64,000 nt of DNA from Escherichia coli (GCF_024700885.2 NZ_CP117016.1); one strand, 5' to 3'; counted from the stretch's first letter, positions 58,323 through 61,300 are shown. The notes: a model not told the origin generated them from the sequence alone. Translations and numbers: made by a program.

Positions 58323-61300
58323 ATGAGCAAACAATCACAGCATGTATTAATTGCCCTGCCCCACCCGCTGCTTCACCTGGTCAGTTTAGGTTTAGTCTCG
58401 TTTATCTTTACCCTTTTCTCGCTTGAGCTTTCGCAGTTTGGCACCCAACTCGCCCCACTGTGGTTCCCGACGTCCATCATGATGGTGGCGTTTTATCGCC
58501 ATGCCGGGCGCATGTGGCCGGGGATTGCGCTGAGCTGCTCGCTGGGAAATATCGCCGCATCCATCCTGCTTTTTTCCACCAGCTCGCTGAACATGACCTG
58601 GACGACCATCAATATTGTTGAAGCCGTGGTCGGGGCAGTGCTACTGCGTAAATTACTGCCGTGGTATAACCCCTTGCAAAATCTGGCTGACTGGCTGCGT
58701 CTGGCACTCGGCAGCGCCATTGTTCCGCCTCTGTTGGGGGGGGGGTCTGGTTGTCCTGCTGACGCCCGGAGACGATCCTCTCAGGGCATTTTTGATATGG
58801 GTACTGTCAGAATCCATCGGCGCACTGGCACTGGTGCCACTGGGATTGTTATTTAAACCACACTATCTGCTGCGCCATCGCAACCCACGGTTGCTTTTTG
58901 AGTCGCTGCTCACGTTAGCCATCACACTGACGTTAAGCTGGCTTTCGATGCTGTATCTGCCGTGGCCTTTTACTTTCATTATTGTGCTGTTGATGTGGAG
59001 CGCCGTGCGCCTGCCACGAATGGAAGCCTTTTTGATCTTCCTTACCACGGTGATGATGGTGTCACTGATGATGGCCGCTGATCCCTCCCTGCTTGCTACG
59101 CCGCGTACATACCTGATGAGCCATATGCCGTGGCTACCGTTTTTGCTGATCCTGCTGCCCGCCAACATCATGACCATGGTGATGTATGCCTTTCGTGCGG
59201 AACGCAAACACATTTCCGAAAGCGAAACCCGTTTTCGTAACGCCATGGAATATTCCGCCATCGGCATGGCATTAGTGGGCACCGAGGGGCAATGGCTGCA
59301 ATCCAACAAAGCACTCTGCCAGTTTCTCGGTTACAGTCAGGAAGAACTGCGCGGACTCACCTTTCAGCAACTGACCTGGCCGGAGGATCTCAATAAAGAT
59401 CTGCAACAGGTTGAAAAGCTGATCAGCGGTGAAATAAACACCTATTCAATGGAAAAACGCTACTACAACCGCAATGGCGATGTTGTCTGGGCGTTGCTTG
59501 CCGTCTCACTGGTGCGCCACACCGATGGTACGCCGCTCTATTTTATCGCTCAGATTGAAGACATTAACGAGCTAAAACGCACCGAACAGGTGAATCAGCA
59601 ACTGATGGAGCGCATCACGCTGGCTAACGAAGCGGGCGGGATTGGCATCTGGGAGTGGGAGCTTAAGCCGAATATTTTTAGCTGGGATAAGCGGATGTTC
59701 GAGCTGTATGAAATTCCTCCGCATATCAAACCGAACTGGCAGGTGTGGTACGAGTGCGTGCTGCCGGAAGATCGCCAGCACGCCGAAAAAGTGATTCGCG
59801 ATTCATTGCAATCGCGCTCTCCCTTTAAACTGGAATTTCGCATTACCGTGAAAGATGGCATCCGCCATATCCGCGCCCTCGCCAACCGGGTACTGAATAA
59901 AGAAGGCGAAGTCGAACGTCTGCTCGGCATTAATATGGATATGACCGAGGTTAAACAGCTTAACGAGGCATTGTTTCAGGAAAAAGAGCGCCTGCACATT
60001 ACGCTTGATTCCATCGGTGAAGCCGTGGTCTGTATTGATATGGCGATGAAAATTACCTTTATGAATCCGGTGGCGGAGAAGATGAGCGGCTGGACGCAGG
60101 AAGAAGCATTAGGTGTTCCGCTCCTGACAGTGTTGCATATTACTTTTGGCGACAACGGACCATTAATGGAGAACATTTACAGTGCCGACACCTCACGTTC
60201 CGCGATTGAACAAGATGTGGTGTTGCACTGCCGAAGCGGCAGCAGCTACGACGTGCATTACAGTATTACGCCGTTAAGTACTCTGGACGGCAGCAATATT
60301 GGTTCGGTTCTGGTGATTCAGGACGTCACCGAATCGCGCAAAATGCTGCGCCAGCTGAGCTACAGCGCCTCCCATGATGCACTGACGCATCTCGCCAATC
60401 GCGCCAGTTTTGAGAAGCAACTACGCATCCTGCTGCAAACGGTAAACAGTACACATCAGCGACATGCACTGGTGTTTATCGATCTTGATCGCTTTAAAGC
60501 GGTGAATGACAGCGCCGGGCACGCCGCTGGCGACGCTTTGTTGCGCGAACTGGCGTCATTGATGCTGAGTATGCTGCGCTCCAGCGACGTGCTGGCGCGA
60601 CTCGGTGGCGATGAATTTGGTCTGCTGCTGCCAGATTGTAATGTCGAAAGTGCGCGTTTTATCGCTACACGCATTATCAGCGCCGTGAATGACTATCACT
60701 TTATCTGGGAAGGACGTGTACATCGGGTAGGTGCCAGTGCCGGGATTACCTTGATTGATGACAACAATCATCAGGCGGCTGAAGTGATGTCGCAGGCTGA
60801 CATCGCCTGTTATGCCTCCAAAAATGGTGGCCGCGGCCGGGTGACAGTTTACGAACCGCAGCAAGCTGACGCACATATCGAACGGGCGGCGATGTCGATT
60901 GATGAACAGTGGCGGATGATTAAAGAGAATCAGTTGATGATTATCGCCCACGGCGTCGCTTCGCCACGGATCCCGGAAGCGCGTAATTTGTGGCTGATTT
61001 CACTTAAGCTCTGGAGTTGCGAAGGCGAGATTATTGATGAACAAACATTTCGTCGTAGCTTCAGCGATCCGGCGCTTAGCCATGCTCTTGACCGCCGGGT
61101 ATTCCACGAATTTTTCCAGCAGGCCGCAAAAGCGGTTGCCAGTAAAGGCATAAGCATCGCCCTCCCCCTTTCCGTTGCCGGTTTGAGTAGCGCCACGCTG
61201 GTGAATGATCTGCTTGAGCATCTGGAAAATAGCCCTCTACCACCACGGTTATTACATCTGATTATTCCGGCTGAAGCGATTTTAGATCACGCAGAAAGCG

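Follow-up and report, generated by a model that had tools for sequence, protein, structure and literature searches.

The 64,000-nucleotide stretch of Escherichia coli DNA analysed in this study (hereafter the window) carries the gene order asmA-dcd-udk-dgcE-alkA-yegD, with dgcE (yegE) in its orthologous position between udk and alkA. The gene shows 98-100% identity in 5416 of 5426 complete genomes. In the window it spans 58323-61641 on the plus strand as a pseudogene of 3319 nt, against 3318 nt for the intact gene, and the single intact ORF of 1105 codons is split. The sequence is 100% identical to locus NL414_RS09865 of NZ_CP117013.1, which RefSeq annotates as 'diguanylate cyclase, frameshifted'. 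The break is a +1 frameshift at an uninterrupted run of ten G residues at 58736-58745 on the plus strand (context CTGTT GGGGGGGGGG TCTGG, by exact base count), which occupies dgcE codons 138-141 and has one G more than the in-frame G9 allele. A preliminary description of this DNA had reported a G10 tract at these positions with dgcE resuming in the +1 frame, and the coordinates, the base count and the ORFs all bear this out; its count of ten was right, whereas the tract as printed there has eleven letters.

Translation of the native frame from the ATG at 58323 (...AIVPPLLGGGSGCPADARRR...) follows authentic DgcE until ...AIVPPLLGG, continues out of frame as GSGCPADARRR... and ends at the stop codon at 58854-58856. 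The 5' fragment (58323-58856, plus strand) comprises 177 codons, of which residues 1-141 are authentic MASE1 sequence and are followed by 36 out-of-frame residues and the stop. The remainder of the gene lies in the +1 frame (...WGGGLVVLLTPGDDPLRAF...) at 58746-61641 on the same strand and contains the second half of MASE1, the PAS domains, the GGDEF domain and a degenerate EAL domain; it includes ...GGGLVVLLTPGDDPLRAF... and has no further stop before the one at 61639-61641. When one G is removed, a single 1105-aa ORF with the architecture of DgcE is obtained, in which Pfam recognizes MASE1 at residues 19-294, PAS families, GGDEF at 682-838 and EAL at 898-1088. On the 5' fragment alone Pfam assigns MASE1 to residues 19-143 only, the domain being split at residue 143, and the break at residue 141 falls within this domain of about 300 residues. 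In the ORF list the +1 frame opens at 58615 and the native frame closes at 58856; since both frames are open only across 58615-58856 (plus strand), any frame-restoring event would need to fall there. For the 935-aa downstream ORF the gene caller places the start at a GTG at 58834, and the best Shine-Dalgarno match for an internal restart is at most 4 of 6 positions at any downstream start codon.

The G10 run is far above chance for the window. G runs of lengths 3 to 7 occur 330, 54, 8, 1 and 1 times, a drop of about six-fold per extra base, the second-longest run of G or C in the 64 kb is 7, and an i.i.d. model gives an expectation of 0.025 runs of ten or more G per window. The earlier remark that such a tract is unusual inside an E. 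coli coding sequence is correct for the window. Other loci of the window were also recorded. The yefM-yoeB pair is found at about 4631-5133 and an O15-family O-antigen cluster (wzx/wzy) at about 16807-25169; between this cluster and galF, at 25248-27481, lies an ISAs1-family transposase gene with an adjoining partial copy, and the AT-rich ISAs1/O-antigen region contains most of the A8/T8 runs of the window. A small toxin-antitoxin-like gene pair, Gp49-like (PF05973) and HTH_37, adjoins asmA at 54145-54763.

The window was found to correspond to E. coli MLI114 (NZ_CP117013.1), which came from stool in Mali; the two sequences agree without a mismatch along 58,678 nt. This genome was obtained from ONT R9.4.1 and Illumina MiSeq reads with the use of Trycycler, medaka and Polypolish, and SKESA and Unicycler served as a cross-check (PMC10198576). 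An identical G10 tract is present in B19695, an independent isolate from Ireland with 1 SNP difference in the gene, and in the Illumina SPAdes contig L004 at 90x coverage. Exact copies of the 177-aa truncated product were counted on 326 public contigs and exact copies of the MLI114 lineage's 935-aa downstream product on 137, while the 91-nt G10T segment has an exact full-length match in at least 60 complete genomes (60 of 60 among the matches listed). The G10 call is reproducible across assemblies and technologies, and the dgcE frameshift is real, inherited and already annotated. The preliminary description had offered three explanations for it, namely a homopolymer sequencing error, a genuine inactivating mutation and a slipped-strand on/off switch, and the first of these is contradicted by the repetition of G10 in the polished MLI114 genome, in B19695, in the 90x contig and on the 326 contigs.

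At the tract position K-12 MG1655 has GGGGGGTGTT (TTG GGG GGT GTT CTG, or G6TGTT) within flanks identical to those of the window, other dgcE alleles have TTA GGG GGT GTT, and the tract is interrupted in most E. coli. Uninterrupted runs which remain in frame exist in two forms, a synonymous G8TT in 9 full-length exact complete genomes and G9T, with the change Val141Gly, in at least 25 complete genomes. These complete-genome counts are taken from full-length rows only and are firm lower bounds, because the band of 99% identity or more mixes in partial alignments (full-length in only 5 of 37 and 9 of 45 rows in two comparisons), and exact-match allele counts are underestimates owing to flank SNPs such as the ACGGCC haplotype. 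This ACGGCC flank variant accompanied the G8T tract in 5 of the 7 loci fetched. In enteroaggregative strain EAEC 042 the tract is G9TT and the gene is frameshifted, with the lesion at the same tract as in the window. As judged from these alleles, the most economical path would begin with substitutions that lengthen the run in frame and end with +1 slippage: T-to-G substitutions may have turned the K-12-type sequence into the in-frame runs G8TT and G9T, replication slippage on G9T would then have added one G to give the G10T of the window, and a parallel one-G slippage on G8TT would have given the G9TT of EAEC 042.

The G10T tract is carried by at least four dgcE backgrounds which are 1-2.6% apart, namely the MLI114/B19695 lineage, HSP60/L006, AR_0150 and an ST410-type background; the last includes the documented ST410 strains AR24.2b, CP023899 and CP031653 (PMC6774230). 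Other frameshift alleles fall in the same few codons, among them G5TGTT (-1), G6TTGTT (+1), a 2-nt deletion and G11, and the most widespread frameshift product is the 145-aa product of G8T (-1 frame), found in 2328 index blocks and more common than the G10 product. The HSP60 allele is a mosaic. Its gene positions 414-922, a patch of some 500 nt in which the G10 tract lies, are identical to the window allele, and the rest of the gene matches its in-frame AF39-type relatives, so that homologous recombination has moved the tract at least once. As a check on recombinational spread, the window allele was also compared with the ST410-type allele, and here the stretch of identity that surrounds the tract, at only 168 nt, is unremarkable.

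The surroundings of dgcE also vary between these backgrounds. The compared genomes with the ST410-type dgcE have a wzi-wza-wzb-wzc capsule-type locus beside galF, about 10-20 kb upstream of dgcE, and MLI114 has the colanic acid (wca) cluster at the corresponding site. On the other side, alkA (61750-62598 in the window) encodes 282 aa in the window lineage, whereas its product has 285 aa in the backgrounds of 042, HSP60 and the ST410 type, and the length of the dgcE-alkA spacer differs as well; these differences point to a probable recombination boundary just downstream of dgcE.

A comparison of tract length across related isolates, which the preliminary description had recommended, has shown that G8, G9, G10 and G11 all occur. 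Among complete genomes with an identical ST410-type dgcE, G8 was found once (N73), G9 five times (AR437, 455, N196, N137 and 23GD35035), G10 in 42 genomes or more and G11 in four to six (JS316, 410, L3452210II and UID2309220004, along with TKEC21-59, which has 3 SNPs). Public assemblies of this background, mostly short-read drafts, gave 8, 39, 809 and 206 index blocks for G8, G9, G10 and G11 respectively, in which G9 is under-counted, as it needs an exact match of 1105 aa and the truncated products are only 145-177 aa long. The in-frame G9 length amounts to about 4% of the ST410-type background and the out-of-frame lengths to about 95%. In the MLI114 lineage G10 dominates, G9 is present on 1 contig (a metagenome scaffold identical over 5.3 kb) versus 137, and G11 is characteristic of a sister sublineage.

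One SNP (ancestral Q966) is common to two independent SRA runs with G11 and absent from the G10 isolates, and N137 and N196, both with G9, have a galF SNP in common. Since sublineage SNPs track the tract length in these cases, the length changes are partly heritable and real. A 43-kb comparison of eight genomes with the ST410-type allele has given one SNP-supported G9 pair as well as two G9 assemblies with other homopolymer deletions, from G5 to G4 in mdtC of N137 and from C7 to C6 in the PAP2 phosphatase gene of strain 455. The frameshifts in these short homopolymers look like assembly errors when the sequences are compared; a part of the tract polymorphism is hence probably assembly noise, and homopolymer indels near dgcE in public assemblies are a caution for homopolymer-based inference in general. 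Another annotated single-base frameshift near dgcE was observed in yegI of strain 167. The pair AR_0149 and AR_0150, which differ only in having G9 and G10, share a second frameshift, a 1-nt deletion at about nt 2080 of dgcE just before GGDEF, and dgcE is consequently dead in this pair regardless of the tract length.

In our study, these findings are best explained by a fixed loss-of-function dgcE allele with a drifting poly-G tract, to which we assign a probability of roughly 80%. Translation from the native start would stop at 177 codons, partway through the membrane domain MASE1, and the remaining 935 codons would be left with no convincing ribosome-binding site of their own. Owing to these two factors the strain is most likely devoid of functional DgcE and of the signalling that depends on it. 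The suggestion of a genuine inactivating mutation has therefore held up well: the allele is inherited and lineage-wide, it truncates MASE1 and it is a frameshifted pseudogene in RefSeq, with loss of function as the probable outcome. Earlier experimental work is in line with this. The activating GTPase RdcA docks on MASE1, for which reason removal of this domain has a null effect on CsgD and matrix production (PMC6510439), and a different dgcE frameshift, H486fs in soil isolates, causes a loss of curli that wild-type dgcE complements (PMC6029578). In Shigella, dgcE pseudogenes still increase c-di-GMP, and several protein species are produced from diguanylate cyclase (DGC) pseudogenes (PMC11327459); by analogy, a restart product could keep some cyclase activity in the window strain. 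Private substitutions in the downstream ORF number 8 (synonymous) and 7 (non-synonymous), and the corresponding numbers for an intact allele are 6 and 5, a comparison without power in which no sign of decay is seen.

Inactivation of dgcE has also occurred elsewhere. In O157:H7 F8797 (NZ_CP038353.1) the tract is the normal G6TGTT and a separate +1 insertion, GATCCTC[A]TCAGG, lies about 35 nt downstream in a gene annotated as frameshifted; this lesion is an independent inactivation a few codons away. In S. flexneri dgcE is disrupted by an IS (PMC11327459), and for a dgcE pseudogene in nine pathogenic strains PMC11327459 cites Povolotsky and Hengge (2016). The cluster of frameshift alleles, the O157:H7 insertion and the published pseudogenes together make dgcE a recurrent target of inactivation. 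The tract itself would remain hypermutable and drift between G8 and G11 in nature, and such continuing drift would give rise to occasional in-frame revertants. The population data show that the out-of-frame state is the stable and prevailing one, a pattern better matched by drift of a hypermutable tract in a gene that can be lost without cost or with benefit than by a selected switch; we infer that slippage added the extra G and that the loss of dgcE is either tolerated or selected for.

The slipped-strand switch, the last of the three earlier suggestions, is only in part consistent with the data. It would require reversible slippage between G9 and G10 (and G8 and G11) to turn DgcE on and off within clones, including clones with ST410 strains, so that the tract is maintained, mixed populations hedge matrix-producing against matrix-free lifestyles, and the predominance of the off state reflects niche selection in mostly clinical and gut isolates rather than gene death. 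The variation of the tract from G8 to G11 among near-identical isolates, some of it heritable, speaks for this possibility, as do the location of a long G run towards the 5' end of the ORF, the in-frame revertants found in public data for 3 of the 3 backgrounds tested and an ORF which is intact outside the tract in most carriers. The features by which contingency loci are recognized are accordingly present in part: an uninterrupted homopolymer of about 8 nt or more within an ORF (here G10) and length polymorphism among near-identical isolates (G8-G11 in the ST410-type background and G9-G11 in the MLI114 lineage, some of which may be assembly noise). On and off lengths are, however, not both common with the gene otherwise intact. 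Out-of-frame lengths dominate at about 95% of ST410-type assemblies, G11 (206 blocks) exceeds the in-frame G9 (39 blocks), G9 is no commoner than the other lengths outside the mode, and one lineage (AR_0149/AR_0150) is doubly frameshifted, its second frameshift being non-revertible. Outbreak and longitudinal sets are uniformly G10 (8 of 8 in the AR-series, 5 of 5 in Ec-042-T and 4 of 4 in EC21Z), and the interruption of the tract in most E. coli also argues against a maintained switch. Slippage is expected to be much rarer in mismatch-repair-proficient E. coli than in the classical phase-variable species. The searchable literature, whose coverage excludes the 2016 survey of Povolotsky and Hengge, gave no match for dgcE with ST410 or for dgcE or yegE with a homopolymer, and nothing directly usable on E. 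coli homopolymer indel rates. The dominance of out-of-frame lengths, the unenriched G9 and the second frameshift argue against regulated or selected switching, and we regard such a switch as unlikely.

Very unlikely is a recoding mechanism, by which low-level full-length DgcE would be produced through +1 ribosomal slippage of tRNA-Gly, or through RNA polymerase slippage to G9 transcripts, and the frameshift would tune the dosage of DgcE instead of abolishing it. GGG codons would re-pair perfectly upon a +1 shift inside the run, both frames are open across 58615-58856, the downstream ORF is still intact, and the Shigella DGC pseudogenes mentioned above give several protein species and keep activity (PMC11327459). 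On the other hand, stimulatory signals were not found, neither a hungry or stop codon (the next codon is TCT) nor an upstream Shine-Dalgarno sequence, and the frameshift configuration is not conserved, most orthologues being single ORFs and the closest intact alleles single ORFs of 3318 nt. Tolerance is no lower for the G8 and G11 alleles, which fall in the other frame, and alleles of both alternative frames are found side by side. In E. coli, transcriptional slippage is known chiefly from runs of A or T.

The reading in which the true tract of MLI114 is G9 and the gene is intact is extremely improbable, for although G10 is the most error-prone site of the window, the backbone assembly came from ONT R9.4.1 and other homopolymer indels are present in some related assemblies, the MLI114 sequence was polished with Illumina reads and cross-checked with short-read assemblers, no other annotated frameshifted gene occurs in the first 50 kb of the window (1-50000), the same G10 is found in B19695, the 90x SPAdes contig and hundreds of short-read contigs, and the tract lengths are heritable and specific to sublineages.

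Production of the curli and cellulose matrix has DgcE as its top-level trigger, and a tract-borne frameshift therefore predicts a matrix-deficient, or at least DgcE-independent, phenotype of whole lineages, which include the O15-type ESBL lineage of the window, EAEC 042 and the dgcE background common to ST410 strains. The tract is also a site at which assemblies and annotation pipelines will trivially disagree. Useful switching rates, if true, would make it a rare case in E. coli of second-messenger signalling under simple-sequence phase variation, but the present data argue against useful switching. A dgcE lesion within a derived hypermutable poly-G tract, with a G8-G11 series over several lineages, appears to be undescribed in the literature covered, which lacks the 2016 survey.

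The fixed, drifting allele may be compared with three known kinds of system. Long-read homopolymer miscalls likewise consist of a single-base length difference at the longest G run of a region, and similar errors are present elsewhere in some related assemblies. Unlike them, the dgcE G10 recurs in data from different technologies and laboratories and in hundreds of short-read assemblies, and its length follows SNP-defined sublineages. The poly-G and poly-C slipped-strand contingency loci of Neisseria, Campylobacter and Haemophilus resemble dgcE in having a run of at least 8 G inside the gene and close to its 5' end, and variants of plus or minus one base which shift the ORF in and out of frame among clonal isolates. 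In dgcE, in contrast, the off state is close to fixation, the in-frame length shows no enrichment, and the tract is missing from most members of E. coli, a host in which mismatch repair is intact as far as known. A third likeness is to the natural dgcE (yegE) pseudogenes of E. coli and Shigella, which affect the same gene with the same expected loss of top-level c-di-GMP input to CsgD, curli and cellulose. Their inactivation is recurrent and lineage-specific, and the classic carrier EAEC 042 has its lesion at the same tract. The lesion of the window differs from a unique-sequence indel, an IS insertion or a nonsense mutation in being a derived homopolymer expansion, and it belongs to a tract family of G8, G10 and G11, with G9 in frame, which extends across several backgrounds including one that contains ST410.
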